NCBI GenBank assembly: GCA_021199375.1
Contig: JAJQIB010000020.1
Location: forward strand, 28,931 to 92,930
Source: Ruminococcus sp.
GTDB taxonomy: Bacteria > Bacillota > Clostridia > Oscillospirales > Ruminococcaceae
Length of the DNA stretch: 64,000 nucleotides
Direction of reading: 5' to 3'
Part shown: piece by piece, positions 23,940-40,826 of the stretch
Layout of the letters: the number at the start of each line of letters is the position of its first letter
How positions within the stretch are numbered: position 1 is the first letter of the stretch
The notes under the pieces: generated by a model
Databases searched by the model: none
What the model was told of the DNA's origin: nothing
Seen by the model: the letters and a program-made list of their open reading frames with translations, nothing else
Position numbers and translations under genes: made by a program

Positions 23940-25483
23940 ATGGATAAATTAAAAAAGATTGCCGAGCTTTTATTTCCACCTGTAGCAGTTGCGATTTTGA
24001 TTATGGTTATCTTTTATACTCAGGATTTTTATCCCTTTGGAGATGGAACTGTTACCTGGTGCGATATGACTCAGCAAACAATTCCTTTACTGCTTGATTT
24101 TAAAGACATACTTGATGGCAAAAGTAGCTTGTTTTTTAACATTAATAATGCAGGATGAATGAACTTTTACGGTGTGTTCTTCTTCTATCTGTCAAGTCCG
24201 TTTAGCTTTTTGGTAAAATTTGTAGACAAAGAAAACCTAGTGCTTTTTGTAAACATCCTTGTTGTTCTTAAGCTTAGCGTATGTGCTCTGACGGCATACA
24301 TTTTCTTTAAATTCTCAAATAGGGAGCTTTCCTTCGGGATTTGTGCATTACTCTCGATTGCATATGCGCTATGCGGTTATGGATTGCTCTTTTATCAAAA
24401 TCTCATGTGGCTTGATGTAATGTATATGTTTCCAATATTTATGTTAGCTCTAGAAAGACTCATAAATAAAAAAGGTATTATATTATACATTTTAAGTCTG
24501 AGTATAATAATATATCTAAATTTCTATTTAACCTATATGGTGGCGGTATTTGCAATTCTTTTTGCCGGAGCGTTTATTCTTACTGATAAAAACAAAGAGA
24601 ATGCACGAGAAGCGAGTACGAGCTTAATACTTGGCACTATAATCTCACTTCTTTTGACTGCATTTGTTTGGCTTCCAAGCCTATTTGAGTATCTTTCATC
24701 TGGACGTTCAAAATCTATTATCGAAACACTTGAAGCTTCAAATACACTTTCAAGCTATAAAACAGTGCTGCCACTTTTGTTTTGCAGCGGACTTATTTTC
24801 GCTATAATCCTTGTTAATGGACTATCAGGAAGAAAAAGAAGTCCAAGATTAAATCGATATATGCTGTTATTTTTCTTAACACTCGTTCCATTCTTTGTAG
24901 AGCCAATCAACGAAATGTGGCATACTGGAAATTATATGTCCTTCCCGGCAAGATACGGATTTATAACAATATTTATAGGTCTAATTTGCTGTGCCGATGT
25001 TTTTGAGGAGGATATTAAATTACTAAATAGTAAAAGGGCTAAATACAATATTCCTTTTACAGCTCTTGGTGCAGTATTAGTTATAGTATATTTTTCGTGG
25101 TCGCTTAAATATATCGAGCAAAAGGGACTTGATTTGTGCACCTATACAAAAAGTCTTTGGGGCGACGACACTTCATTTGAGAATCTTTCCATTATGTTTT
25201 TTGTTGCTTTAGCCTGCTATGCTGTCCTGTACCTTATTTATCGTTATGCAAGAATAAATGTATCTAGCTTTGCTTTTCTAATGGTTGTAGTTTTGATGGT
25301 GGAATCTTCGGGAAATGTTCGTGTTTATCTGACAAGTGCATATAGTCATAATGACACACGAACAGAAACCTTTCAGGATGTCGTTTCTATGGCTGATAAA
25401 ATTGATGATGACAGCTTTTACCGTATTATTACCGATAGTAAAATAACAGATTACAACACAGTTGGCGGACTTGGTTATCCCTC
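23940..25483 (+). pseudogene. yfhO: YfhO-family membrane protein, 5' part (in-frame TGA at 24156-24158; interrupted by the IME)
   Basis: WCDMTQQ, NNAG*MNF, YQNLMWLD, SFPARYGF; frame continues GYP|SLGHYTSLT once the element is removed. Confidence 0.85.
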
Positions 25484-25608
25484 CGTGAAGCACTTATAAG
25501 TACACCCACTGTTAAATCAGGCAATAAACCATATTCGATGAATATAAAATAACGCAACATGAGGCTATGTCTCCGAAACTATTAATGGAGGCATAGCTAA
25601 TTTTTCTC

Positions 25609-25637
25609 TTGAAATAATTGCTCCGATGTGGTATAAT
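25609..25637 (+). promoter_or_regulatory. sigma70 promoter of agrAC
   Basis: TTGAAA-N17-TATAAT with TGn; preceded by a hairpin (gctatgtctcc / ggaggcatagc). Confidence 0.7.
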
Positions 25638-25680
25638 GATAACTGATACATAAAGCGTGACCAATCGTGAGGTGATTGCT

Positions 25681-26376
25681 ATGAATATTGCTATCGTTGA
25701 TGATGAACCTGTATTCTTAAAACAACTTCATAACAGATTAAGAGAAATGAAACTACCCGACTGCGAAATACACGAATTTACAAGTGGGAAAGACTTATTG
25801 AGTTTCTATGTCAAGGGAATGTATGAGGTTATCATACTTGATGTAGAGATGCCTGATCTGAACGGGTTGCAGACTGCTGAAAGAATCAGACAGATAGATA
25901 ACTCTGTTATTATTTCTTTCCTGACGAATTATGCCGAATTTGCCGTTCAGGGCTATGATGTAGGCGCGTTTCGCTATATATTGAAAAATCAACCTGACTA
26001 TGTATATACCAAACAGCTAAATTCTATCATTGCTGAATGCCAGCAACGATTTAGGACTTTCACTTTCAACAATAAAAATCTGTCATTTAAGTTCAGGTTG
26101 ACAGACATTCTTTACTTTGAAGGACATAGAAGAAAGGTATCGCTATTCACGCTTAATGGTGAATTGGAGTACGGCGGTGATTTTTCAAGTGTGTGTGGTG
26201 AGTTGTTAAAATACAATTTCGCAATGATAAACCGTGGAATACTTGTAAATCTTGACCACATACAGAATATTACTAAATATGATGTGATTCTCAGTAATGG
26301 AAAGAAAGTCCCAATAGGCAAAACATATAAAGATGAGATAGTTGCTCGCTATCTTAACTACGCAACAGGGAGATGA
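25681..26376 (+). CDS. agrA: LytTR-family response regulator (AgrA-like)
   Basis: IVDDE, ILDVEMP receiver motifs; LytTR tail (YFEG...INRGILVNL..I). Confidence 0.9.
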   Translation: MNIAIVDDEPVFLKQLHNRLREMKLPDCEIHEFTSGKDLLSFYVKGMYEVIILDVEMPDLNGLQTAERIRQIDNSVIISFLTNYAEFAVQGYDVGAFRYILKNQPDYVYTKQLNSIIAECQQRFRTFTFNNKNLSFKFRLTDILYFEGHRRKVSLFTLNGELEYGGDFSSVCGELLKYNFAMINRGILVNLDHIQNITKYDVILSNGKKVPIGKTYKDEIVARYLNYATGR

Positions 26377-27671
26377 TCAGATTGCCTATATGGATTGAAA
26401 GTGGTATAGAAATTGCAAATGTGGCTATCGAAATTGCATTGATATTTCTTTACTTCTCACTATTGAGCAGGCGGAAGAGCAACCCTATTATAATGGTGGC
26501 TACATTTTTGTCAGCAACGATTATTCTTTCTTTTGTTGTTCTGTATTTTGAGAATATATTCTTTTATATGATAACAACAACTTTTCTCATAGCTGCAATT
26601 TCATTTGCCTGTTTTGAAGATAGCATAAAACATAGGATATTCTGGACAGTAATGTATTTGATGATAATATCGGTGTCTGAGCCGATTGTTATCGGAATAC
26701 TATGTATTGCAAATTTGGGTACTCCTGAAGATTTCTTACAATCTGGTTTAGGACGCTATCTCGGTATGGTGGGGACTGATCTGATTTATTTGTGGCTTAT
26801 AGGTATGATGCACCGAATCATAAATAAAAGGATAAGAAATCTTCCTGTGAAATATTGGATTTTGATAGTCTTAATCCCGATAATAAGCATTTTTCTGCTA
26901 CAAACCATACTCGACATCTTTACAGCGTACAGCACGATAAACTATTGGTCATTAGGTATATCACTTTTAGGCATTATATACATCAATATTGCGATGTTCA
27001 ATTTTTTTGAAAGTTATGAAGATAAAATAAAGTTGAGATACCTTGAAACTATGAAACATCAAGAACAAGAAAATTACAAAATGCTTACTCTTTCATACAA
27101 GCAAGTACGAGAATTTAAACACGATATTGAAAATCAATTCTTAGTTTTGAATGATATGTTAGAGAACAACGATACCGATTCTGCCAAAGAGTATCTTGTC
27201 AAACTAAGCTCATTTGTAAGGCTTGCTAACAGGCTTTGCTATACTGGAAATAACGCCGTAGATTCTATCGTGAACATCAAAGGTTCTCTTGCTCAGACCT
27301 ATGGTATAGATTTTATTTGCAAGGTCAATATCATAACAAGTATCAAGGCTGATGAATTGGAACTTTGCCGTATCATAGGAAACGCTCTTGATAACGCAAT
27401 AGAGGGCTGTCAGAGGGCTGATGTTCCACATAAGCATATTTGGATAAGCCTAACGGAAGAACGAGAGAAGCTATTTATTGTCATTACAAACACATCAGAT
27501 AAGGTAGATACATCTGCTTTAACATCAACAAAGAAAGAACAAGGGCTTCACGGCATAGGGATAAACAGTATCAAATCTTCCGTAGATAGATTGGGAGGGT
27601 TGGTAAGTTTCGATTATGAGGACGGAATTTTTAAGCTGAATATTATGGTTCGTAATTGTTTGCTGATTTAA
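26373..27671 (+). CDS. agrC: GHKL sensor histidine kinase (AgrC-like)
   Basis: Multi-TM N-terminus, FKHDIEN H-box, GNALDNAIEG, HGIGINSI. Confidence 0.9.
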   Translation: MIRLPIWIESGIEIANVAIEIALIFLYFSLLSRRKSNPIIMVATFLSATIILSFVVLYFENIFFYMITTTFLIAAISFACFEDSIKHRIFWTVMYLMIISVSEPIVIGILCIANLGTPEDFLQSGLGRYLGMVGTDLIYLWLIGMMHRIINKRIRNLPVKYWILIVLIPIISIFLLQTILDIFTAYSTINYWSLGISLLGIIYINIAMFNFFESYEDKIKLRYLETMKHQEQENYKMLTLSYKQVREFKHDIENQFLVLNDMLENNDTDSAKEYLVKLSSFVRLANRLCYTGNNAVDSIVNIKGSLAQTYGIDFICKVNIITSIKADELELCRIIGNALDNAIEGCQRADVPHKHIWISLTEEREKLFIVITNTSDKVDTSALTSTKKEQGLHGIGINSIKSSVDRLGGLVSFDYEDGIFKLNIMVRNCLLI

Positions 27672-27680
27672 TCATCTGAC

Positions 27681-27767
27681 TTTCGGTACAAGAAAGCGAC
27701 ATTTCAGTACACTTTGCGGCACTTTTGTGTAAAATCTATTGAAAAAATCGCCAGCGTGTGCTATGAT
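27681..27767 (+). promoter_or_regulatory. LytTR (AgrA)-box direct repeats and agrB promoter
   Basis: TTTCGGTACA (27681) and TTTCAGTACA (27702) 21 bp apart, upstream of TTGAAA-N17-TATGAT (27739-27767). Confidence 0.7.
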
Positions 27768-27850
27768 TTTTGCAGGAAGTGATTCAGAAATGATTTTTGC
27801 AGGAAGTGATTCAGAAATGATTTTTGCAGGAAGTGATTCAGAAATGATTT
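27763..27850 (+). repeat. 27-bp perfect tandem repeat x3 (plus a partial) spanning the agrB RBS and start
   Basis: Unit atgatttttgcaggaagtgattcagaa at 27763, 27790, 27817; encodes MIFAGSDSE. Confidence 0.95.
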
Positions 27851-28434
27851 CAAAACTTGCAAAAAACATAGCACACTTTTTTGTGATTCAGAACATAACG
27901 GAAGAATCCAAAGAGGTAATCTATGCATATGGAATGGAGCTGCTGATCTCCGATGTGCTGAATACCATCATCGTCCTGCTGATTGCTCTGATCTCCCATA
28001 CACTGCCTGCGGTTGTTGTATTCATAGCCGTATTTATGGGGTTGAGAAAGTTTGTGGGTGGGTATCATGCTAACAGTCATCTGAGCTGTATGTTCACGCT
28101 TGTCATGGTGATGCTGGCTTTCTCTTATGGCATTTGCAATATAAGCGGACAAATTGCTCAGATATTCAGCATTGGCTTCATAACGATAGCATTGCCCATC
28201 ATTTTCTGTATCGCTCCCGTTCCGCATCCGAATAAACCGATGTCAGAGGAAAAGGGTATCAAGTTGAGGAAACGGAGTATTATACTTGCCGTTGCCCTTT
28301 CTGCTGCTGTGATCGCACTGCTTGTATTCCAATACCAGAAAATAAGCCTTTATGTATCAAGCGGAATACTGCTGTCAGCAATCATGGCACTGCTCGGTCA
28401 CTTTTTGAATCGGGGTGATAACAGTAAACGATGA
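27844..28434 (+). CDS. agrB: Accessory gene regulator B (AIP-processing peptidase)
   Basis: YAYGME, LRKFVGGYHANSHLSC (catalytic H/C), APVPHPNKP motifs. Confidence 0.92.
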   Translation: MISKLAKNIAHFFVIQNITEESKEVIYAYGMELLISDVLNTIIVLLIALISHTLPAVVVFIAVFMGLRKFVGGYHANSHLSCMFTLVMVMLAFSYGICNISGQIAQIFSIGFITIALPIIFCIAPVPHPNKPMSEEKGIKLRKRSIILAVALSAAVIALLVFQYQKISLYVSSGILLSAIMALLGHFLNRGDNSKR

Positions 28435-28588
28435 CAAGGAAAGAGAAAAACGAAGTATTTGGGCGATTATAATTCTTGCTCTGGTTAGGGTAGCATTGTA
28501 TCTTGCAAACGGCAGTGCTTGCGGTATTACGTTCTATCAGCCCCCAGAGCCTGACTTATCTGAGCTGTTTGAAAGGAGGGATTTGTAA
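28415..28588 (+). CDS. agrD: AgrD cyclic-peptide precursor 1 (ring CGITF); GTG start or frameshifted ATG 28431
   Basis: ...IWAIIILALVRVALYLANGSA-CGITF-YQPPEPDLSELFERRDL*; absent from the ORF track. Confidence 0.8.
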   Translation: MITVNDDKEREKRSIWAIIILALVRVALYLANGSACGITFYQPPEPDLSELFERRDL

Positions 28589-28743
28589 TGAAAAAGCTGA
28601 TGAGTATCGCAAAGAAGGCTTCCACGGCACTGGCGGCTCTCGCACTGGTGGTAGCTACCACATCTGTTCCAAGTGCTTGCTATCACTGGTTCGCACAGCC
28701 TGTTGAGCCGGAGGAGCTTAGAAAATATGTGAACAAAAAATAA
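28588..28743 (+). CDS. agrD: AgrD cyclic-peptide precursor 2 (ring CYHWF), 51 aa
   Basis: aggaggg RBS; MKKLMSIAKKASTALAALALVVATTSVPSA-CYHWF-AQPVEPEELRKYVNKK*; absent from the ORF track. Confidence 0.9.
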   Translation: MKKLMSIAKKASTALAALALVVATTSVPSACYHWFAQPVEPEELRKYVNKK

Positions 28744-28777
28744 TTAGCAACTATGTGTTGTAGAAAGGTGGTATGAA

Positions 28778-31700
28778 ATGGTTAAGAATAAGATTTTGAA
28801 ACGTATCGTGGCAGGTCTTAGCTGTATTGCGTTATCTACAACTATGCTTACGAGTTTACCTGCTTTTGCCGATGATTATGTTGACGAATATCAATATTAC
28901 TCAACGTTAGATCCTAATGGTGAAGAGTACCAAGAATGGAAATCAAATCTGGCAAGTTCTGCTGTAAGTGTTCCCCAAAATAGAATGCTTAAAAGTATTC
29001 TCAAAAATAATACTTTAATAGCAAATGACTACATTGAGTTCAACACTGCAAGTAATGGGCACTATACTATTGGTACAACAGGAGGAAACCCTAATAGTTC
29101 AACTGATGATAATAAAAAGATGCTTTTCGGTCATCCGGGTGGAGGAACATCAAAAACAACAATTGTTGTCGGCGAGAACAAAAATGAATTTACATCATCA
29201 AATGTAACTTATGATGCTGATGGATCTAAAAGTGTCTCCAAAGCCACTTACGATGGTGTTGATGTCACACAAGAATTATCTATTATAGAGAATTCTGCGA
29301 CAGGACGAGATGATGTTGTTCAGATTAAGTATATCGTTAAAAATGATACAGAGTACGAGAAGCAAGTGGGCATAAGAATTATGATGGACACTATGCTCGG
29401 AGGTAATGATGCTGCACCATTCAGAGTTAATGGCTCTGATGTAACAACTGAAACTGAATATACGGGTTCTAGTATTCCACAAATATGGCAAGCCTTTGAT
29501 TCTGCAACTAATCCCGGTGTAGTAGCACAAGGAACATTCTACAAATCGGGTGACAGAAAGCCCGATAAAGTACAATTTACTAATTGGGGAAATGTATCAC
29601 ACACACTTTGGGATTACGTGACTCATCCAGCAGTTTCCAATGGAGATAGTGCGGTATCCATAACATGGAACAAAGATACTTTCTCCAGTGGTGAAACAAG
29701 AGAATTTGTTACCTATTACGGATTGAGTGAGTTAGAACAAGATTTAGTTCCTCCTATTGCTCTTAGTGTTTATGCTGATAATACATTAGAATACGGAAAT
29801 GGACAATATGGAAATGCAAATCTTTCGATTTATTTAGACAACATAAGCGACGTAAATGTTAACAATGTAGTGCTTTCCATATCTACTCCAACTTATCTTG
29901 AAAAGGTAACGGGTTTAAATTCACCAGTAACATATTCAGTGATGTCATCGGGAAGTCATAAAGCTCTTAATTTATCATACAAGCTTAAGCAAAGCATTAA
30001 TGTGGCAGAAGATTTAGAAGATGAAATCAAGATAACGCTTACTTATCCTCTCGATGCGGAGAACAATGAGGTAAAGGAAATAACCAAGAAGATAAAAATT
30101 CCTAAAATTGATAAAGCAATAGTAATTGTTCCAGGTATAATGGGTTCCCAGTTGTTTAGGGAAAATGGGGATAGGTGTTGGGAACCTTTTTGGCTTAATG
30201 AAGATATGAGTGTTGATTGGGATGATGATTTTATTATAAACGGCTTAATGATTAGAAGTATGGTAGCTGATTTGATGCACATCAGTTGCGATAACAATGG
30301 AGAATCAGATGATCCTATTAATCTTGGCACACAGTTTTATGGAACCATGGATGTTTATGAAAAACTACATAATAAATTAAATCAAGCAAATTTTAATGAA
30401 AACACTGATGTAATCTTCTATGCTTATGATTGGAGATTAGATATTAATTCGCAGCTCTCTGACTTGTACAATAAAGTGAAAGATTATGATGATATTAACT
30501 TTGTTGCTCATAGTATGGGTGGATTATTGGTTGATGGATATGTCAACAACTATGATACAAGTAAGATATCTAAAGTAGTAACTCTTGGTACACCATTTGG
30601 GGGCGCTCCTCTTGCTGGTAAAGTATTATTAAGTGGTGATTTATCAGATGTTTTGGGATACGATGAGTTAGGGTATGCAGGACCGTTTGTACAAAGCCTT
30701 GCCAATAATTTCACAAGCATTTATGAATTGTTGCCAAATGAGGATTATATCTATACAAGCAGTTGGTTAAATCGACGCACCATTGCTTATACTGGTGAAT
30801 GGTGGGAATTCTGGAAAACAGAAAGCGTCGATGAACCTTTGAATTACTCAGAAACAAATTCTATTATTGGGGATGTTTGTAACAATAAGTTATTAAACAA
30901 GGCAATTGACTTCCAAAATTCACTTGATGATAACGCATATAATGGTATAGAAACTATTGCATTCATTGGTAATAGTAACACAGATACTTTTGCTTCTATG
31001 TCATGTGCCTATACAAGTGAGGGCTTTTTTACAATGCCATCGTACGCAAATAGTACGGCAACTGGTGATTCTATAGTTCCGCTGATAAGTGCAAAGCAGC
31101 GATTTAAGGATTACAAGGTCTATGGAAAAAATCATATGGGTCTTGCAACCGATGATCAGGTACTTGAAGATGTTGTAACATTTCTGAAAAATGGCAAAAG
31201 CTCTCTTCAGGGTGGCTACATTACTCAGGCAAAAGCAAGGAAGCTTCTCGCATCATCAACTCCATCCTATAATTATCAACTCGCTTTTAAGGGAAACATG
31301 AATATGTCCGCTGTCAGTGATGATAGTGAGTATAATTTAATTCTTAGTAAAGCAAATGATAGTTGGTTTGGTATCTACGACAATAGTGAAGAATTCCGAA
31401 TCGACAGAATGGGCAATCTTAATAATCAGGAAATGTATATATGTACTTATTCTGATAACAAGTATACTTATACTTTTGAGTCCTTAGAAGACCAAACTGT
31501 CGACTTTGTATTCTCAAATGGTGAAGATTCGTTTGTTGCTGCTGGAATAGTGGTTTCAGAAGGAACAACAGTGTTGGTTAATACGCAAAATAAAACAGTA
31601 ACTGTTAATGATGCGACTTATAGATTTAGAAATATTAATCCCATCACACTTAATGAGAATGATATTTCTTTGAAATCTAAAAATGTGTACAATGACATAA

Positions 31701-32110
31701 TTACTAATACTATAGCAGCGCGAATTAAACTGTCAAATCTTTCAGGTAAGGAAATTGATATCAACAACCTTGAAATAGTTTACCTTTATGATAATGATAA
31801 TAATATAAACGAGATATTTGAATGCGACTGGGCTGGACTTGATAACGTAACAATTAATAGTTCTGTTATTGGTAATATTTCGTATGATGAGGAGCTTGAA
31901 TGCTCAAAGATAACATTGAGCTTTAATCAGGTTGAAAACAGCATTTTACCTGAGAATACTGATTTAGATGTTCATTTCCGAGTACACACAATGAGTTGGG
32001 ATAATTATGATATTTCCAACGATTACTCATTGAATGGTGGAGACTACTCAGAAAATGACAGGATTTTAGTTTATTATAATGGGGTTTTGGTGAGTGGAAA
32101 TGCCGAATAA
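28778..32110 (+). CDS. Secreted multidomain protein: unknown N-domain, LCAT/PGAP1-like lipase-acyltransferase, C-terminal CBM3
   Basis: Signal peptide ...LPAFA; IVPGIMGS, YDWRL, AHSMGG, TLGTPFGGAP, GDSIVP, NHMGL; CBM3-like ECDWAG...FRVHTMSWDNYDISNDYS...ILVYYNGVLVSG. Confidence 0.8.
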   Translation: MVKNKILKRIVAGLSCIALSTTMLTSLPAFADDYVDEYQYYSTLDPNGEEYQEWKSNLASSAVSVPQNRMLKSILKNNTLIANDYIEFNTASNGHYTIGTTGGNPNSSTDDNKKMLFGHPGGGTSKTTIVVGENKNEFTSSNVTYDADGSKSVSKATYDGVDVTQELSIIENSATGRDDVVQIKYIVKNDTEYEKQVGIRIMMDTMLGGNDAAPFRVNGSDVTTETEYTGSSIPQIWQAFDSATNPGVVAQGTFYKSGDRKPDKVQFTNWGNVSHTLWDYVTHPAVSNGDSAVSITWNKDTFSSGETREFVTYYGLSELEQDLVPPIALSVYADNTLEYGNGQYGNANLSIYLDNISDVNVNNVVLSISTPTYLEKVTGLNSPVTYSVMSSGSHKALNLSYKLKQSINVAEDLEDEIKITLTYPLDAENNEVKEITKKIKIPKIDKAIVIVPGIMGSQLFRENGDRCWEPFWLNEDMSVDWDDDFIINGLMIRSMVADLMHISCDNNGESDDPINLGTQFYGTMDVYEKLHNKLNQANFNENTDVIFYAYDWRLDINSQLSDLYNKVKDYDDINFVAHSMGGLLVDGYVNNYDTSKISKVVTLGTPFGGAPLAGKVLLSGDLSDVLGYDELGYAGPFVQSLANNFTSIYELLPNEDYIYTSSWLNRRTIAYTGEWWEFWKTESVDEPLNYSETNSIIGDVCNNKLLNKAIDFQNSLDDNAYNGIETIAFIGNSNTDTFASMSCAYTSEGFFTMPSYANSTATGDSIVPLISAKQRFKDYKVYGKNHMGLATDDQVLEDVVTFLKNGKSSLQGGYITQAKARKLLASSTPSYNYQLAFKGNMNMSAVSDDSEYNLILSKANDSWFGIYDNSEEFRIDRMGNLNNQEMYICTYSDNKYTYTFESLEDQTVDFVFSNGEDSFVAAGIVVSEGTTVLVNTQNKTVTVNDATYRFRNINPITLNENDISLKSKNVYNDIITNTIAARIKLSNLSGKEIDINNLEIVYLYDNDNNINEIFECDWAGLDNVTINSSVIGNISYDEELECSKITLSFNQVENSILPENTDLDVHFRVHTMSWDNYDISNDYSLNGGDYSENDRILVYYNGVLVSGNAE

Positions 32111-33050
32111 ACTACTCTCGAGTCAGAAACCCTTAATAATAACTTCTCTTATAATAGCTTTGCTATCAATCGTTATCATTCCCGTTGTTATGAAACAACT
32201 AAGAAATATCAAAGCAGATATTAACCAGTATGATTCATATGCCAATGTAATTAAAGACTATTCCTTTGTTCTTGGGTGTCAAAATACAGTAAAATGCCAA
32301 GTTACAAAGTCCAGCGACTATAGCAGAAAATATGTATATAACACTTATTATGACAGTGATGATAAGGTAATATTCCAATACGGATTGTTTCAAAACAGCT
32401 ACAAGTACGAAAAGCAGGAATTGTTCAAAGGAATTAACCTTGTAAAGCCATTCCCCGAAGCAGCACTTCCAAATCATGCTGACACCCACATGGAGTTCAG
32501 GCATTATCAAAGTAAATGTGAACCTGATATTGTATTTGACCCCGACAATCCTCATGATCAATTAGCTTTATCTTTTGGCAGTTCGATGAGCTATAAAGAA
32601 GTAATGGAGTACAACACAAGACTTAATGATTTAGGGTATGCCGTTAAGTTTTGTTGGGTAGATACCTATCTTCCTGATGATGTTACAGCTTCTTCTAAGT
32701 ATGCAGCTGGTCATCACATTCCGCAAACAGTTAGTGGATATGAGTTATATTCTGATTATGATACTGCTTATGGATTCTTACTCTATGATCATGACTATCT
32801 TAACAAGACTGAGTTCGATGCCCCTGCTCAAAGATTTATTGATATTATTTCAACTCAGTATGAAGATAACTTTATGTCAGAAAAATTGAACAACATTAGA
32901 GAAAAGCTGAAACAAAAAGATGCGCTAAGTGTGGATAAGTTGGAAATTATAGGTGTCGTTCTGGAAAAGGAAGACGGCAAGCAGTTTACCGCCGATGAGA
33001 TTTATAATATCACTAATAATGACGAATTGGTTGTATTTGCTTATTCCTAA
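32094..33050 (+). CDS. Single-TM extracytoplasmic protein with a Sigma_reg_C-like domain
   Basis: Overlaps the upstream gene by 17 nt; ALSFGSSMSYKEV, FCWVDTY, AYGF, LEIIGVV motifs. Confidence 0.55.
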   Translation: MEMPNKLLSSQKPLIITSLIIALLSIVIIPVVMKQLRNIKADINQYDSYANVIKDYSFVLGCQNTVKCQVTKSSDYSRKYVYNTYYDSDDKVIFQYGLFQNSYKYEKQELFKGINLVKPFPEAALPNHADTHMEFRHYQSKCEPDIVFDPDNPHDQLALSFGSSMSYKEVMEYNTRLNDLGYAVKFCWVDTYLPDDVTASSKYAAGHHIPQTVSGYELYSDYDTAYGFLLYDHDYLNKTEFDAPAQRFIDIISTQYEDNFMSEKLNNIREKLKQKDALSVDKLEIIGVVLEKEDGKQFTADEIYNITNNDELVVFAYS

Positions 33051-33298
33051 AATTACGGAAATTGAATAACTTTGCTTTTACCCATAGCCTATTGGCGCAC
33101 CTGTTTTTCGTTCCACACAAGTCTGAATAGTCATTGTGGCGCACACCACAACAGGCACAAACTCTATTGGAACTGAATAACCGCAAGCCCTCGGAAATGC
33201 TCTTGTAAGCGTTTCTGAGGGTTTTTCTTTTTCAGCGGTTAAGTTTTCCGCTCCGCAGGCTCGGACGGCACTGTAGGGCTTTTCCGTTTGCCCGACGG

Positions 33299-33892
33299 TC
33301 AAGCAGAGGTCTGCTCGGTGATGCCGTGACGGAGTTCATACTCACGCACACGGCGATAGAAAGTGTTAGCTGACAATCCCATTCTCCGCATAAAGTCCCT
33401 GCCCGTAATGTTCTTCGACTTCCATTCCCCATAGAGCTGCCCGAACCTCGTCCAGTCGGTGGGGATAGGCTTTCGCCCGGTGTACTTGCCCTGTGCCTTA
33501 GCGATCTCGATGCCCTCACGCTGTCGCTGTTTGAGCTGTTCACGCTCCAATTGTGAGAGGGCTGCGAACACGGTCAACATGAATTTTCCTGACGGTGTAT
33601 CGGTGTCGATTTTCTCCTTGTGGCTGACGATGATTACTCCCTTTTCGGTGAGCGTGTCGATGATGTTCAGCAAGTCCTTCGTGGAGCGCCCCAGACGGCT
33701 GATACTCTCGATGTAGAGCGTATCGCCCTCACGCACATAGTCCAGCATTGCCCTGAGCTGAGGACGGTCTGTGTCCGCTCCTGACAGCTTCTCGGAGAAG
33801 ATGCGGTCAACCTGATAGTCGCACATGATCTCATGCTGTCTCGCTGTTTCCTGATGTTCCGTTGAAACTCTGATGTATCCTATTTTGCTCAT
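33299..33892 (-). CDS. Small serine recombinase (resolvase/invertase) with C-terminal HTH
   Basis: GYIRVST, SGADTDRPQL, SISRLGRS motifs. Confidence 0.92.
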   Translation of the reverse strand: MSKIGYIRVSTEHQETARQHEIMCDYQVDRIFSEKLSGADTDRPQLRAMLDYVREGDTLYIESISRLGRSTKDLLNIIDTLTEKGVIIVSHKEKIDTDTPSGKFMLTVFAALSQLEREQLKQRQREGIEIAKAQGKYTGRKPIPTDWTRFGQLYGEWKSKNITGRDFMRRMGLSANTFYRRVREYELRHGITEQTSA

Positions 33893-33943
33893 AGCTTTTG
33901 TTTCCTTTCTGATGTAAAATTTTTTCTTTTTGTTGATTGACGG

Positions 33944-34019
33944 TTGACTTATTGGTGGTGATGATGTATAATTACTGATAAGGGTAGGCACTTAGCTTGC
34001 TCGTGAAAATCGGAATTTA
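33944..34019 (+). repeat. Cassette 5' site 1: promoter, TAAGGGTAGGCA box, 16 nt, AAATCGGAATTT
   Basis: TTGACT-N17-TATAAT (33944-33972), box 33979-33990, IR 34007-34018; homologous to 37082-37157. Confidence 0.75.
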
Positions 34020-34033
34020 GAGGAGTAGCACTT

Positions 34034-34495
34034 ATGGATTTTTTAGATTTAGATGATGAAGTATTGAATGATGTCCAGAAAGTAATGAGCTATGATTCCT
34101 CTATTCCGCTTCATTATAGGATTTTAGGAAAACTGAACTATAATGATGATCTTCGCAATTGTATCAGATTTATTGAAGCAAATAGAAGTCTATTTATGGA
34201 TGAATACGCTTATCTGATGCTTGAATCAGCAGTTGAGATGTGCCTTAATTCTGTTGTCAATGAGGATGGAGAGATATTTAATCTTTCAGATATCCCCAAA
34301 AATCATACTTATAAACCCGCTCCAATGGAACTGGAATACATCGAGTATCTTCTCAAAAATGGAGCAAGTCCGCTTCTTCCAAAACATTTTAATCAGTATG
34401 AACATATTGAAGATATGGAGGAAGATTGTTCTAATCAGATGGGTGTTCAATTTATATTGTCAGAGGTGAAAATGCTATTTGACAAATACTGCTAA
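34034..34495 (+). CDS. Hypothetical acidic cargo protein, 153 aa
   Basis: gaggag RBS; AT-rich; opposite strand to the flanking backbone genes. Confidence 0.75.
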   Translation: MDFLDLDDEVLNDVQKVMSYDSSIPLHYRILGKLNYNDDLRNCIRFIEANRSLFMDEYAYLMLESAVEMCLNSVVNEDGEIFNLSDIPKNHTYKPAPMELEYIEYLLKNGASPLLPKHFNQYEHIEDMEEDCSNQMGVQFILSEVKMLFDKYC

Positions 34496-34516
34496 ATTCT
34501 GATTTTTCTAAGTAAC
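34493..34516 (+). repeat. Cassette 3' site 1
   Basis: TAAATTCTGATTTTTCTAAGTAAC; 20/24 identical to 37660-37683; first 13 nt are a 12/13 inverted repeat of 34007-34019. Confidence 0.75.
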
Positions 34517-34529
34517 TATACATATCCTC

Positions 34530-34567
34530 AATGGCAAGGAGAAACCACTCTCCTTGCCGTTATTTTT
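34530..34567. terminator. Terminator between the cargo gene and the relaxase
   Basis: atggcaaggaga / tctccttgccgt stem plus T tract. Confidence 0.75.
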
Positions 34568-35978
34568 ATTCAAGCTGACTTTTCTTTCTCTTGGCAGATT
34601 GTTCGTTTTCCATATATCGGGAAAGTGTTCTCTGACTGTCACGCTTCTGCTGTGCAAGCCTTGAAAGCCTGTCCGCTTCTTTCTTTAGGGCTTTACGCTC
34701 CGCACTCATCTTGGCATAATCCTCACGGGCTTTCTTCAGCTCGTCCTGCAAGTCCTTGATCTTGGGAATAACGCCATTCGGAAACAGTTCTTTCAGCTTT
34801 TTACGACACTCATGATACTGGTCGAGTTCGTAACGGCAGTTCTCCCCATATTTCTTTTTAGCCTTTCCCTCCAAAGAAGAATAGTTCTTGTAATAGACCT
34901 TATACTTGCGGTATTCCTCGATAGCCGGAATTTGCTCCTCCAAAGCGTGGATACGGTCGCTCAATTCAAACTGCGGTGTTGACATGACCATAAATTCGGC
35001 AAGTGCCCTGTGAGCTGCGCTCTCCAATTCTTCAAGGGTGGAATTGCTTGCGTTCATCTCGTTGAGTGCCTTGCTTACCACCTTCATATTCTCACGGTCT
35101 GCCCAATTCGTCAAACCCTGAGACAGCTGAAATTTCTCGGTTGTGGTGCGAATAATTCTCGCTGTCGGGCGGTGCGACATTTGGTACTTGTAACTCTCGA
35201 TACGCTTTCTGATCTGCTGGCTCTCATAGAAGTAGCCCAGCGTTTTTGCTCTTGTAAACTTCGCCCTCGGATTGCGTTCCTTTTGCTCCGCAAGCATAAA
35301 TTTCAGGTCTATTTTGTGGTCGGGATTGTAGTCAACCAATATGCCGAAATCAGCACACTTTGCAAGGAAATCCTCAAAATCCTCGCTGACCTTGATAACC
35401 TCGTCAATGGCTCGTTTAAGCTGTTCTTTCCACGAAAGATTTTGCTTGTCAAGCTCCCACTCCCAATGGCTCTTACCCTTTGAAAGATGCGGATTTTCAA
35501 TGATAGAAAGTCCGTGTTTCCTGCAAAGTTCGTCCGAAATCGTGCGGAGTTTGCTCCACGCTCGGTCGGGAATTTTGCCCTGATTATGCTCGGTTTCAAA
35601 GGTCTTGCCCGTGTAGAAATTTACATTGTTCACGATGATGTGATTATGGATATGCTCATGGTCGCAATGCACAGCTAAAACATACTGATACTCGTCATTG
35701 AAAAATGCCTTGCAAAGCTCCTGCCCGATAAGCAAAGCCCGTTCGGGAGTGACCTCTCCGGGGGCAAAGCTCTGAATTATGTGCTGGCACTCGCTTCGGC
35801 TTCGTCCTGTGCCGACTGACTGCCTGATGTTCCTAAACTGTTCTGATGCTCCACATGGAGTAGATACGCACAAGTTGCTAACAACATATTTGCCGTCTGC
35901 GGTTTTGTCTGGGTTGCAGATATAAGCAATTGCGCCGTATGTTCCCGTGTGGATCGTATGGATACGAGTAACTGCCAA
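34566..35978 (-). CDS. Relaxase/mobilisation nuclease (MOBP-like)
   Basis: AIAYICNP (catalytic Y), HIIQSFAPGE, HCDHEHIHNH 3H motif. Confidence 0.9.
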   Translation of the reverse strand: MAVTRIHTIHTGTYGAIAYICNPDKTADGKYVVSNLCVSTPCGASEQFRNIRQSVGTGRSRSECQHIIQSFAPGEVTPERALLIGQELCKAFFNDEYQYVLAVHCDHEHIHNHIIVNNVNFYTGKTFETEHNQGKIPDRAWSKLRTISDELCRKHGLSIIENPHLSKGKSHWEWELDKQNLSWKEQLKRAIDEVIKVSEDFEDFLAKCADFGILVDYNPDHKIDLKFMLAEQKERNPRAKFTRAKTLGYFYESQQIRKRIESYKYQMSHRPTARIIRTTTEKFQLSQGLTNWADRENMKVVSKALNEMNASNSTLEELESAAHRALAEFMVMSTPQFELSDRIHALEEQIPAIEEYRKYKVYYKNYSSLEGKAKKKYGENCRYELDQYHECRKKLKELFPNGVIPKIKDLQDELKKAREDYAKMSAERKALKKEADRLSRLAQQKRDSQRTLSRYMENEQSAKRKKSQLE

Positions 35979-36529
35979 ACTTCCTCTAACCTCGCTTTCA
36001 TATCGGCAATATCCTCATCGTAGAGTTTGCCGCCTTTATTCACTCTATGGGCTACCTGATTGAACGAATTGGAGATAGATGAGATGTATCGTGCTATCTG
36101 TTTTATGTCCTCGGTATCTTCCTCAACATTCATCACGGTGAGTGCAGAATATCTGCAAAAATCACCCCTGCTTCTGAAACTTGTTTCAGTATATCGGCGG
36201 TTGATTGCTTCAAGCTCCATATCGTTCACTCTGAATGTGATAAGGTGCTTGCGTACCTCGCTCGGCTCGGTGTCCTGCGGTGGGGATTCGCCCTCGGTGG
36301 TTTCGGGCGGTTCTGTGAAATCCACCTCGCCCGATTCCGTGACTTCCAACATTGGAACAGGCTCGGCAGTGGTGTCCTCGGCGGTATCTGTTTCGGGATT
36401 ATCGGACAGCGTATCCGCCTGCATTTCGTCCGCATAGGTGTGGGCAAGTTTCTCCGCAAGCTCCTCGACTTGCTTATGCTTGAACAGCTTTGCAAGGAAG
36501 CCTTTTTCTGGCTTTTTGAATATTGACAT
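35777..36529 (-). CDS. mobC: MobC relaxosome accessory protein with acidic N-terminal extension
   Basis: ITFRVNDMELEAI RHH and ISSISNSFNQVAHRVN MobC motif; overlaps the relaxase start. Confidence 0.8.
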   Translation of the reverse strand: MSIFKKPEKGFLAKLFKHKQVEELAEKLAHTYADEMQADTLSDNPETDTAEDTTAEPVPMLEVTESGEVDFTEPPETTEGESPPQDTEPSEVRKHLITFRVNDMELEAINRRYTETSFRSRGDFCRYSALTVMNVEEDTEDIKQIARYISSISNSFNQVAHRVNKGGKLYDEDIADMKARLEEVWQLLVSIRSTREHTAQLLISATQTKPQTANMLLATCAYLLHVEHQNSLGTSGSQSAQDEAEASAST

Positions 36530-36602
36530 TGTGTTGTCCTCACTTTCTCGGCGGTTCTGCCGCCGTTCTTCGATTGCTCCTGCAATCGCTCTCAGGGGTC
36601 TT

Positions 36603-36667
36603 AGGGGAATTTTCCCCTGACAAGCCGTATAAAGTTTACGATTTTCCATAATCGTAATACTTTATAC
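36603..36667. promoter_or_regulatory. Candidate oriT (paired inverted repeats upstream of mobC)
   Basis: aggggaa / ttcccct and a 41-bp imperfect palindrome gtataaagtttacgatt...aatcgtaatactttatac. Confidence 0.35.
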
Positions 36668-37081
36668 CGTGCTTGTGAAAATTGATCGGGCGTTTCACGC
36701 CCTCACTTGTTTTTCGCTGTTTCACGGCGTTTTTTCACGCTCCTGCGTGATTTGGAGCTATGCGACTTTCTCTCTGTTCCGCACGGCTCTGAGAGTATTT
36801 TACCGGGGTTCGGCGCAGTTATGATGCTGGGTGGGCGGCAGTCTGGTGAAACCTTCCGTTCGGCTCTCCCTGAGCCGATTTTGAATGTCGATATGTTTAT
36901 CGTTACATTCAAATTTCTGCCCTGCCTGACCGCCCATGAAAATACCCTTCTACTTTACTACCGACGTTTTTGAGAAAATGCTCATGATTTTCCGAAAAGT
37001 TTACAGTTTGTTCATGACGATTCTCCCTCTTGCATAGTTTCAACATGGAATTTCTGTGTATGATGACGGTGATTTCAGAGG

Positions 37082-37157
37082 TTGCTTTTTCGGGGACGGT
37101 ATGATATAATTTAGGGGTAAGAGTAGGCATATGGCTTTCTTACGCAAATCGGAATTT
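37082..37157 (+). repeat. Cassette 5' site 2: promoter, TAAGAGTAGGCA box, 16 nt, AAATCGGAATTT
   Basis: TTGCTT-N17-TATAAT (37082-37110), box 37118-37129, IR 37146-37157. Confidence 0.75.
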
Positions 37158-37170
37158 GAGGAGATATTAT

Positions 37171-37662
37171 ATGGCTGAGATATGGGATGCATATGATAAT
37201 GAATTTAATAAAATAAAGAATATTACATTATTGAGAGGAGAACCAATTCCTGATGGCATATATCATTTGGTGGGTGAAGTTATTGTTAAACATATAGATG
37301 GCACTTACTTGATTATGCAAAGAGATTTTGAAAAAAAATTCGGTGGAATGTGGGAGTTGACAGCAGGTGGTTCTGCATTGCAAGGTGAAACGCCTTTAGA
37401 GTGTGCAGTAAGGGAATTGAAAGAAGAAACAGGTATTGAAGCATTACAAATTATGGAAATTGGGAGATTTGTGCAAGATGTTAACCACTCTCTTTATGCT
37501 GAATATCTATGTGTTACTGATTGGAAGAAAAATGCAGTTTCTCTTCAAGAAGGAGAAACTGTCAATTATAGGTGGGTAGATAAAAAGAGCCTTTTGGAAA
37601 TGAGCCAAGACGAGTTAGTATCATCAAGGGCAATCAAACTTATTAAATCATTAGATATATAA
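37171..37662 (+). CDS. NUDIX hydrolase (cargo)
   Basis: Nudix box GGSALQGETPLECAVRELKEETG. Confidence 0.92.
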   Translation: MAEIWDAYDNEFNKIKNITLLRGEPIPDGIYHLVGEVIVKHIDGTYLIMQRDFEKKFGGMWELTAGGSALQGETPLECAVRELKEETGIEALQIMEIGRFVQDVNHSLYAEYLCVTDWKKNAVSLQEGETVNYRWVDKKSLLEMSQDELVSSRAIKLIKSLDI

Positions 37663-37683
37663 ATTATGATTTATCTTAGCAAC
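37660..37683 (+). repeat. Cassette 3' site 2
   Basis: TAAATTATGATTTATCTTAGCAAC, starting at the NUDIX stop codon. Confidence 0.75.
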
Positions 37684-37902
37684 AAAAAACTGAATATCAA
37701 TATCATATGCAGAGCAACACCAGCTCTGCATTTTTTATACCCGATTCAAAATTCCCCATAACATTTTCACGATAAGAAAAGTTTTATGGCGCACTCAACT
37801 TCATGCGCACTGCGAATAGACTTTCACCTCGAAAGTGCGCTATAATTTTAGTATGGGGCTTAAGTATAGGCTCGACTAAAATTTCAGAATGGTGGTGATG
37901 AT

Positions 37903-38241
37903 ATGGCTACGACTTCTATCGCTGACAAGCTGGCGAAACTCGAAAAGAAGATCGCCAAGCGACAGGCTACGATCGCTGAGGAGCAGAAGCAGCTCGACAA
38001 GGAAATGGAGGAGTACAACAAGCTCTATCTGACGGCACTTGCCAACAAGTACAAGCTGAGTGGAAAAGACCTTTTCTCTGCTATCGAGCGTGAGCATGAA
38101 CAGCTTGAAAAGCTCCGTGAGGGTGAGCAGTCCGATGATGATGCGGACAGTAATTCCTCGGTCACGGACGATGAGGAAAAGCAGGACGATACTGCGGTCA
38201 AGCACAGCAGTTTTCCCCATAGCTACTCAGGCGGTAATTGA
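37903..38241 (+). CDS. Coiled-coil hypothetical protein (element backbone)
   Basis: tggtggtg RBS; heptad-rich sequence. Confidence 0.75.
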   Translation: MATTSIADKLAKLEKKIAKRQATIAEEQKQLDKEMEEYNKLYLTALANKYKLSGKDLFSAIEREHEQLEKLREGEQSDDDADSNSSVTDDEEKQDDTAVKHSSFPHSYSGGN

Positions 38242-38258
38242 CGGAAAGGGGGCTTTGA

Positions 38259-38708
38259 ATGAGTGACTATGTTTTCCTCGTTGGTGACGATTATGAGAGC
38301 AGCAACAAGGAATATGTTTCAATAAATTCTGACAAGGGAAAGCTGATAAGCATTGCCCTCGCCGCAAGCGGAATTCCGTTCAAAGGGCGGTTTGACAAAG
38401 AGCGTATGCTGTTCAATTATGACGGTGTTTACAAGGAGTCCGTTGATGAAATTATTGCAAAATTCACCTCGGACGAGTATGCCGAACAGCGTAATGAGTT
38501 AGCGGAGCATAAGGGCGATGACTGTCTTTATTTCCTGCCTGCTGTCGCAAAGCTCCTGCGTATGACAGAGGGTACGCTCCGCCGCAGACCTCTTGACATT
38601 CAGCTTGCCGTCTGCAAGCTGAATGTGGATAACTGGTACTGCGACACTTACACAATTCAGCATGAGCTGAAAGATGCGATGATGCTGATAACTAAACCCG
38701 AAACTTAA
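38259..38708 (+). CDS. Hypothetical protein (element backbone)
   Basis: aaggggg RBS; co-oriented with the recombinase operon. Confidence 0.7.
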   Translation: MSDYVFLVGDDYESSNKEYVSINSDKGKLISIALAASGIPFKGRFDKERMLFNYDGVYKESVDEIIAKFTSDEYAEQRNELAEHKGDDCLYFLPAVAKLLRMTEGTLRRRPLDIQLAVCKLNVDNWYCDTYTIQHELKDAMMLITKPET

Positions 38709-38836
38709 CATAAAATGATAGCTGTGTATGGGACGGCACTTGCCGTTCCGCACGGCTACCCTGTGCAGGCGTAACGCCCCTGCAACAAAAAGCCTATGCG
38801 TGTAGAGATAGATAATCGCAGGCGGAAAGGAGAAAC

Positions 38837-39034
38837 TTGGCAAGAAAGGATACAGGATATACTTTGGCTGAGCTGAATGAGCGATATAAAGACAAGCCTA
38901 CCAGCAAAGCCGTGTACGAAGTGGACGGTCAGCGTTATGCTGTGACAAGCCATTTCGTTGGTAATAAAGACCTTGACAAGGTGCTTTATGACCTCGCTTT
39001 CAAAAGAGCGTTTCAGGAAACCGAAAACAAGTAA
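38837..39034 (+). CDS. tnpW: TnpW-family transposon-encoded protein
   Basis: YEVDGQRYAVTSHFVG..LDKVLYDLA motif directly upstream of the large serine recombinase; aaaggag RBS. Confidence 0.65.
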   Translation: MARKDTGYTLAELNERYKDKPTSKAVYEVDGQRYAVTSHFVGNKDLDKVLYDLAFKRAFQETENK

Positions 39035-39126
39035 AAGTTTTGAAAAAAGACTTGCCATATTCGGTTTTCTGCGCTATAATAGTTGTATCATCGAATATGG
39101 TTTGCTTTGATTGGAAAGGAGTTATT

Positions 39127-40791: not shown

Positions 40792-40826
40792 AATATTTTT
40801 GGGTGTGCTTTTATGGGGTTCTCCTC

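Follow-up and report, generated by a model that had tools for sequence, protein, structure and literature searches.

Quorum sensing of the agr type is usually understood as a matter of one precursor, one cyclase, and one receptor. In this study, we analyzed an agr-type cassette of Ruminococcus sp., found within a 64-kb stretch of contig JAJQIB010000020.1 (the whole stretch is further referred to as the window), in which one membrane peptidase-cyclase (AgrB) and one AgrC-like kinase are accompanied by two tandem, different genes for AgrD-type peptide precursors. With agrBDCA of Staphylococcus aureus it shares the His/Cys peptidase-cyclase AgrB, an AgrD in which a Cys ring of five residues is joined to an acidic follower, a polytopic kinase of the HPK10 type with a hypervariable sensor, and a LytTR regulator binding 9-bp direct repeats with a 12-bp spacer (in the window such binding is putative). 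Unlike the staphylococcal system, the window has the order A-C-B-D-D, two promoters on one strand, no RNAIII-type divergent transcript, two precursors instead of one, and a location on a mobile element; moreover, its hypervariable sensor is not contiguous with agrD and shows no clean co-variation with it. Another agr locus on a mobile carrier is that of the C. difficile phage phiCDHM1, which is reported to contain agrB, agrD, and agrC (PMC3901668). This phage locus is not known to include a regulator gene or more than one agrD. The carrier studied here differs in being an integrative mobilizable element (IME), not a phage, with a complete set of agr genes and a second agrD.

The clostridial agr systems (C. 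perfringens agrBD, C. difficile agr1/agr2, and the cAIP system of R. cellulolyticum) share with the window the family TIGR04223, of which AgrD2, the second precursor, is a full-length member, but those loci have one agrD per agrB. The AgrD sequences of C. perfringens and C. difficile show the C-xxxx-x-QPxxP layout, the same as in AgrD2. Four separate agrBD pairs are present in Ruminiclostridium cellulolyticum (PMC8251862), and in C. botulinum and C. sporogenes the agrBD1 and agrBD2 loci provide one organism with two AgrD peptides of different roles (PMC3673130), each agrD being paired there with its own agrB. For Clostridium autoethanogenum it was proposed that one AgrB processes two AgrDs (PMC8748961), but its agrD genes are localized in separate operons, each with its own agrC, whereas those of the window are adjacent, apparently translationally coupled, and accompanied by one cassette kinase. 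Reviews of rumen signaling merely count agr genes (PMC10838665). A full-text literature search returned no description of tandem agrD genes, of Ruminococcus agr beyond gene counts, or of the peptide strings, which, given its incomplete coverage, is absence of evidence only. Known already is the labelling of both open reading frames (ORFs) as AgrD family by genome annotation pipelines; the conserved two-precursor architecture, the contrasting evolution of the two rings, and the IME context were not found in the searched literature.

The cassette occupies positions 25681-28743 of the window and consists of five co-oriented genes of the + strand, recognized from the ORF list and by direct reading. 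They code for a regulator of the LytTR type, a kinase resembling AgrC, AgrB, and, in tandem, two AgrD-like proteins. We consider it probable that both precursors are functional and that at least one of them is the autoinducer in this IME-borne, agr-type cyclic-peptide cassette. The order agrA-agrC-agrB-agrD1-agrD2 with two different AgrD-like precursors, proposed in the initial annotation, was confirmed, and the coordinates and predicted rings given there were correct. It had been further claimed that both precursors are served by one AgrB and one AgrC; as tblastn detected no second copy of the kinase, the regulator, or AgrB in the 64-kb window, this stands for the window, to which the statement about a single AgrC has to be limited, and a second receptor may be encoded elsewhere in the genome. 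AgrB carries the motif GG(Y/F)HA-x5-C (GGYHA in the window), whose His75 and Cys82, seven residues apart and invariant in seven aligned relatives, are the predicted catalytic pair. A search of PDB sequences with AgrB gave matches solely to designed Kelch-repeat proteins, which were rejected as spurious, and no relative of the window AgrB was found in a scan of viral contigs. In the kinase, at least six hydrophobic segments were distinguished by hydropathy within residues 1-212, and its start codon overlaps the stop codon of the regulator gene (ATGA). The agrB, agrD1, and agrD2 genes appear packed for translational coupling, with the GTG of agrD1 placed inside agrB and its TAA overlapping the ATG of agrD2.

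The second precursor is the canonical one. AgrD2 reads MKKLMSIAKKASTALAALALVVATTSVPSA-CYHWF-AQPVEPEELRKYVNKK, with the residues PSA just before the Cys, has a single hydrophobic segment (residues 13-27), and matches NCBIfam TIGR04223 over its full length (43.5 bits at a cut-off of 19, E 2.3e-11). AgrD1, whose C-terminal region reads ...NGSA-CGITF-YQPPEPDLSELFERRDL, scored 17.7 bits (E 0.003) with this family, just under the cut-off, and neither protein matched the staphylococcal-type AgrD profile of Pfam (PF05931). A comparison of the AgrD1 profile (nine homologues) with that of AgrD2 (eight homologues) aligned 22 columns in register (E 1.8e-4, probability 48%), with Cys36 and Phe40 of AgrD1 falling on Cys31 and Phe35 of AgrD2 and QPxEP on QPxEP. 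We read agrD1 and agrD2 as old paralogues, of which AgrD1 would be the divergent one. Its core, CGITF-YQPxEPDL, is invariant in the nine aligned homologues, and some AgrD1 relatives carry the NCBI name "AgrD family cyclic lactone autoinducer peptide" [Ruminococcus sp.]. In the protein collection clustered at 90% identity, homologues of AgrD1 and AgrD2 form 57 and 94 clusters, respectively.

Both genes bear the marks of purifying selection. The ratio of nonsynonymous to synonymous polymorphism (pN/pS) equals 0.21 for the whole agrD1 as well as for the whole agrD2, and in agrD1 codons 7-15, downstream of the agrB stop, it falls to 0.04, with differences between loci located at third positions of the GTG frame. 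The GTG, the frame, and the core of agrD1 are kept in 12 of the 12 alignable genome loci, two of which (L008 and L012) have 6-nt deletions that retain the frame. The possibility that agrD1 is a frameshift pseudogene, fixed in all relatives, was thus ruled out by the conserved GTG frame, the third-position substitutions, and the frame-keeping indels.

The pair itself is widely conserved. Scanning of genomes with AgrB revealed 16 loci in Ruminococcus species, Oscillospiraceae metagenome-assembled genomes, R. albus AR67, and Hominimerdicola aceti, while the metagenome scan yielded 258 relatives, 80 of which were fetched and 78 were evaluable; the locus occurs commonly in gut metagenomes of pig, bovine, and human origin. 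Both agrD genes occur in tandem in at least 11 of the 16 genome loci and in about 74 of the 78 metagenome loci, and the order regulator-kinase-AgrB-AgrD1-AgrD2 is kept in the genome loci wherever the extent of the contig allows its assessment. It should be stressed that the 80 metagenome loci are not independent samples, because most of them represent one common human-gut allele. Independent support for the pairing is provided by two distant variants, i.e., L030, in which AgrD1 with the ring CGFTF is paired with AgrD2 with the ring CHCWF, and L033 (CAIMC paired with CHYWF), where a 984-aa metallophosphatase gene separates the pair from agrB. In the latter locus (L033:821-4832), agrD1 is preceded by a ribosome-binding site (RBS) of its own, starts with an ATG, and shares 29 nt with agrD2, so that the two precursor genes remain joined although detached from agrB.

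The two rings evolve in contrasting ways. Among about 52 AgrD1-like ring matches in the fetched cluster sequences, only three types were present: CGITF (35), CGFTF (13-14), and CAIMC (4). In AgrD2, at least 11 types were distinguished, of which CFHWF (29), CYHWF (~26), and CHYWF (15) are common and the rarer ones include CHRWF, CHCWF, CHCCF, CFYWF, and CHHWF; the variation is free at positions 2-3, whereas Trp4 is kept in most types and Cys1 and Phe5 are invariable. The near-fixed ring of AgrD1 against the variable ring of AgrD2 suggests that the peptides are not redundant and that one is a conserved signal and the other an allele-specific one.

The sensor part of the kinase is hypervariable as well, being 50-71% identical to its relatives (lowest at residues 10-80) versus 64-94% for the cytoplasmic half. 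The comparison of individual loci indicates that recombination shuffles the modules of the cassette. Locus L017 (5530-8680), compared with window positions 25600-28800, matches from ~27100 on, whereas it has the regulator and the kinase sensor of L003; over agrB-agrD1-agrD2 the two share 99.7% identity across 1,046 bases (27817-28862). AgrD1 and AgrD2 of L017 and the window are identical with sensors just 65% identical, while the sensors of L003 and L017 are 100% identical with different AgrD2 rings (CFHWF and CYHWF, respectively). The Tyr/Phe exchange in this ring may be neutral for the receptor. L001 and L002 share with the window, at 94-98% identity, a block that begins at the agrB -10 box and ends at the agrD1 stop, and outside it AgrD2 (72.5%), the kinase (60-64%), the regulator (53%), and also the LytTR boxes are divergent, a pattern that fits AgrD2 travelling functionally with the receptor.

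The coordinates of all features are gathered in Table 1.

Table 1. Features of the two-precursor agr cassette, its putative operon, and its carrier element (window coordinates).
Feature	Coordinates	Strand	Remarks
Sigma-A type promoter of the regulator-kinase pair	25609..25637	+	TTGAAA-N17-TGgTATAAT; 11/12 consensus matches and TG extension
AgrA-like response regulator (receiver and LytTR)	25681..26376	+	Pfam Response_reg 1e-19, LytTR 2.3e-14; ATG start behind RBS GAGGTGAT
AgrC-like histidine kinase	26373..27671	+	Pfam HATPase_c_5 5.6e-22; polytopic sensor, residues ~1-212; H-box FKHDIEN
LytTR-type direct repeats	27681..27710	+	TTTCGGTAC (27681)-N12-TTTCAGTAC (27702); 9-bp, 21-bp period; conserved in all relatives
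agrB promoter	27739..27767	+	TTGAAA-N17-TGcTATGAT; 10/12 matches and TG; conserved in all relatives
Perfect 27-bp tandem repeat	27763..27850	+	Unit ATGATTTTTGCAGGAAGTGATTCAGAA, 3.3 copies; Tandem Repeats Finder, 100% matches
agrB, membrane peptidase-cyclase, 196 aa	27844..28434	+	From the ATG conserved in relatives; PF04647 1.5e-40
agrD1, divergent AgrD precursor, 57 aa	28415..28588	+	GTG start 20 nt inside the agrB 3' end; predicted ring CGITF, follower YQPPEPDL
agrD2, canonical AgrD precursor, 51 aa	28588..28743	+	ATG overlaps the agrD1 stop (TAATG); RBS GGAGG; predicted ring CYHWF, follower AQPVEPEEL
Large secreted protein, 1110 aa	28778..32110	+	Signal peptide; LCAT-like alpha/beta hydrolase, Pfam LCAT 4.9e-13; CBM_3 1.6e-5
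ORF, 318 aa, last gene of the putative operon	32094..33050	+	Co-conserved in 99.9% identical contigs
Intrinsic terminator, likely operon end	33185..33224	+	17-pair stem followed by a T run
IME in yfhO, 15,343 bp	25480..40822		4-bp CCTC at both junctions (25480-25483, 40823-40826)
Small serine recombinase (resolvase)	33299..33991	-	Pfam Resolvase 9.8e-43
Mobilization module (longest ORFs)	34566..36649	-	MobA/VirD2-type relaxase 34566-35978, Pfam Relaxase 1.6e-33; MobC/NikA-like protein 35777-36649, Pfam MobC 1.6e-5
Large serine recombinase, element integrase	39040..40791	+	Pfam Resolvase, Recombinase, Zn_ribbon_recom, DUF4368; 31 bp from the right junction

Upstream of agrB, 9-bp repeats with a 21-bp period were found, which is the LytTR layout of AgrA, ComE, and PlnC, and we regard them as putative binding sites of the cassette regulator. 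The LytTR boxes reported at this position in the initial annotation were upheld, being conserved and co-varying among the loci: their half-sites change together (GGTAC, GGGAC, and ATTAC), in step with the divergence of the regulator. The pattern has no other exact match in the window, and one further site was detected at three mismatches. For the agrB promoter, an alternative -10 box, TAAAAT at 27730, right after the second repeat, was rejected as not conserved in relatives, and the TTGAAA-N17-TATGAT arrangement was preferred.

The proposed mode of action of the cassette is as follows. The regulator-kinase pair would be driven by the consensus promoter at 25609 and the agrB operon by the promoter at 27739, with the end of transcription at the terminator at 33185. 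AgrB would remove the QPxEP follower from both precursors and close a five-residue thiolactone, predicted to be CGITF for AgrD1 and CYHWF for AgrD2, and the leader is expected to be cut near the small residues preceding the Cys (GSA|C and PSA|C). If the cut were made directly before the Cys, the resulting tail-less rings might rearrange by an S-to-N acyl shift to homodetic cyclopeptides, and the conversion of tail-less rings to cyclopeptides was reported for Clostridia (PMC8251862). The calculated [M+H]+ equals 522.238 for the tail-less ring CGITF and 737.286 for CYHWF, and 680.307 and 895.356 for the tailed forms SA-CGITF and SA-CYHWF, respectively. At least one of the peptides would then activate the kinase, and the phosphorylated regulator would bind the repeats and raise transcription of the agrB operon together with that of the secreted cargo.

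Several observations weigh against this proposal. The processing of AgrD1 by AgrB is presumed from the established mechanism of AgrB enzymes, the TIGR04223 score of AgrD1 is below the cut-off, and its gene opens with a GTG devoid of a canonical RBS. There is no clean co-variation of the AgrC sensor with either ring, as exemplified by L003, L017, and the window. Furthermore, the agrB promoter has a good -35 box of its own, and the repeats end ~50 bp upstream of its -10 box. In the classic arrangement, by contrast, a LytTR box overlaps a -35 box that is weak; autoinduction may therefore be modest and basal expression may be high. Either agrD may also be lost in nature: agrD2 has been replaced or deleted in L063, L070, and L105 and is absent in L012, while agrD1 carries a frameshift in L041 and is removed by a deletion in L011, and therefore the two genes are not strictly co-dependent. 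The expression data speak for the proposal, with one reservation: contigs from metatranscriptomes of pig and other gut samples span positions 28224-28680 (the agrB 3' end, agrD1, and into agrD2) and 28652-28890 (agrD2 into the hydrolase gene), with the depth over agrB-agrD higher than over the kinase; these contigs are unstranded and possibly of DNA origin, so transcription of the cassette in vivo is supported but not proven.

Different divisions of labor between the two peptides may be considered. In the initial annotation it was suggested that one peptide may be the autoinducer and the other a second signal or a quencher, and that the element could count the cells carrying it. It is possible, although we hold this view only tentatively, that AgrD2 is the allele-specific autoinducer of the linked kinase, whereas AgrD1, with its fixed ring, would affect other cells by cross-inhibiting rival agr systems, by signaling to a receptor encoded elsewhere, or as an antimicrobial. 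AgrD2 is indeed canonical, has a strong RBS, and diversifies in its ring like the known specificity groups; in L001 and L002, AgrB and AgrD1 are retained while AgrD2, the kinase, the regulator, and the LytTR boxes diverge together. However, the identical sensors of L003 and L017 coexist with different AgrD2 rings, and L012, L063, and L070 keep the regulator, the kinase, AgrB, and AgrD1 in the absence of AgrD2, where an agonist provided by AgrD2 only would leave a dead system. The antimicrobial role is additionally disfavored by the lack of antibacterial activity of those synthetic autoinducing peptides of gut commensals that were tested in PMC11953309, which is weak and general evidence. As to the single point of AgrD2 being the allele-specific ligand, we lean towards it without conviction.

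We find it unlikely that both peptides are agonists of the same kinase, redundant or additive, with the duplication raising or buffering the signal output. The presence of a single kinase in the cassette and in the window, the survival of natural loci with either precursor alone, and the case of C. autoethanogenum, where the phenotype appeared in the double agrD mutant only (PMC8748961), would agree with such an arrangement, but CGITF and CYHWF share only Cys1 and Phe5, the ratio of three to at least 11 ring types is not expected of interchangeable ligands, and the members of the pair have stayed distinct through deep divergence. A two-channel system, in which AgrD1 would be a signal shared by all variants of the element, AgrD2 a private signal or a cross-inhibitor, and the one kinase would integrate both, is a speculation to which we attach a decidedly small probability; if it were true, a carrier cell could gauge how dense its own variant is relative to the whole population of carriers and tune the secreted cargo or transfer-related behavior accordingly.

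The start of agrD1 needs a separate comment. Its frame has no ATG in the window and opens with the GTG at 28415, while an ATG at 28431, placed on the agrB stop (ATGA), is one base off the frame and would enter it if the A5 run at 28446-28450 were A6. Such ATG-start alleles form a minority, with A6 in L025 and A7 in L026-L029, the latter being independent assemblies; their products begin with MTRKEKK(R)SI... and continue with an unchanged leader, core, and follower. The poly-A run 3' of the agrB stop can thus be described as a switch of the agrD1 frame, with A5 (the majority) corresponding to the GTG at 28415 and A6/A7 to the ATG. A one-base slip in this run alters the N-terminus of AgrD1 and leaves the peptide intact, which we regard as a curiosity of the locus and not as decay. 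Programmed -1 frameshifting at GAGAAAAAC was also taken into account and set aside, as there is no canonical slippery heptamer and neither the ATG nor the A run is conserved (L008, which lacks the out-of-frame ATG, and L012). It is highly improbable that AgrD2 alone is made and that agrD1 has no function, being a remnant or an ORF lying by chance over the agrB 3' end, for its missing in-frame ATG and clear RBS, the stray ATG on the agrB stop, and the sub-threshold score are outweighed by the low pN/pS (above all just after the agrB stop), the frame-keeping indels, the core invariant in nine homologues, the prevalence of the CGITF ring, the A6/A7 alleles that bring an ATG into frame and encode the same peptide, and some relatives that have an ATG in place of the GTG or beside it.

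The 5' region of agrB contains a 27-bp tandem repeat that is specific to this strain or its assembly. The unit is multi-copy in the window only and single-copy wherever it was detected elsewhere, i.e., in 16 of 16 genome loci, in the 99.9% identical contigs L017-L024, and in 71 of 78 metagenome loci; moreover, one RNA contig and one DNA contig skip 54 bp at this site. The triplication may be real in the strain or may be an effect of assembly. Its first copy overlaps the agrB -10 box, and the extra 54 bp repeat the agrB RBS and ATG in frame (in-frame ATGs are present at 27790 and 27817, 5' of the agrB start); translation of AgrB could therefore begin 9 or 18 residues further upstream, with MIFAGSDSE repeats.

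No terminator was predicted between the kinase gene and agrB or between agrD2 and the next gene, and the first strong one on the + strand is that at 33185; the likely operon therefore consists of agrB-agrD1-agrD2, the gene of the 1110-aa hydrolase/CBM3 protein, and the 318-aa ORF (32094-33050), for which no match in Pfam or NCBIfam was found. The 1110-aa secreted protein is likely a co-transcribed output gene product. The gene directly 3' of agrD2 always encodes a very large secreted protein, yet of differing kinds: an LCAT-like hydrolase with CBM3 in the window and L003, and VWA-domain proteins of 1212-1311 aa elsewhere (e.g., L026:10339-14274 and L030:5366-9004). This suggests a swappable output gene under agr control.

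The location of the cassette on an IME, assumed in the initial annotation, found confirmation in the recombinase, the relaxase, the split yfhO gene, the empty sites, and a second insertion site. The Pfam profile of yfhO is divided between the left flank (profile positions 4-489, left of 25499) and the right one (positions 500-835, from 40813). Contigs of three public DNA runs, derived from related strains with flanks ~96-97% identical, join 25479 to 40823, skipping 15,343 bp, with CCTC shared at the joint, and thus represent the empty site. In run X19, the contigs of the element are mostly identical to the window (0-6 differences per piece), their flanks run into unrelated sequence, and the empty yfhO site is present too; the same element is therefore inserted at another genomic site in this run. 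It is also worth mentioning that codon 73 of yfhO (24156-24158) is a TGA nonsense codon in the window, while related strains have G at 24156 (GGA, Gly), and the interrupted gene is decaying further.

Besides the modules listed in Table 1, the element encodes a NUDIX protein and small ORFs. Among its ORFs of at least 100 aa, no match to a secretion ATPase, a coupling protein, or another type IV secretion protein was obtained, and therefore the element was classed as mobilizable and not self-transmissible. The cassettes of relatives are also flanked by serine recombinases, relaxases, or resolvases. In run X26, a related backbone (resolvase to recombinase), ~90% identical to window positions 33335-39500 with several indels, occurs without the agr region, and its depth is higher than that of the host flank. 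The small resolvase, 89-93% identical across the loci, directly follows the agr-plus-cargo module on its 3' side in many metagenome loci as well as in L003, L004, L008, and L014, and it might mark a boundary for cargo exchange.

Among the relatives, rearranged or truncated loci were encountered as well. In some metagenome contigs, loss or shift of the agrD1 stop fuses AgrD1 to AgrD2 in one ORF (P0004 of 109 aa and P0046 of 89 aa), and these may be real alleles or sequencing errors. In the second locus of Ruminococcus sp. 210702-SL.1.03 (L006:6001-6588), agrB has a premature stop (TCA to TAA, 177 aa) and QS replaces QP in the AgrD1 follower, while in R. albus AR67 (L011:3894-4544) a deletion has brought the 3' end of agrB directly against the follower of agrD1, and AgrD2 has QH for QP. 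Hominimerdicola aceti (L014:2307-2714) has kept the regulator and the kinase, with agrB cut at residue 136 and no agrD. Finally, ~3 kb upstream of the cassette in the metagenome contig L017 (1304-2446) a second, unrelated agr-like module was identified, composed of a kinase fragment, a 198-aa AgrB, and one AgrD-like ORF (MRSFKKLL...AACGCASMYGGYQAKEPKK).

In place of the single precursor, the cassette keeps two distinct ones, with a fixed and a variable ring, and the pair has been retained through deep divergence, shuffling of modules, and transfer from genome to genome by mobilizable elements. As five-residue rings are easy to synthesize and the promoter and the receptor are defined, the system is a tractable one in which the handling of two substrates by a single AgrB, and the reading of two ligands by a single receptor, could be understood. 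The linkage of agr to large secreted or surface proteins (hydrolase/CBM3 or VWA) implies that it may control colonization or fiber-degradation traits that spread horizontally among Ruminococcus.

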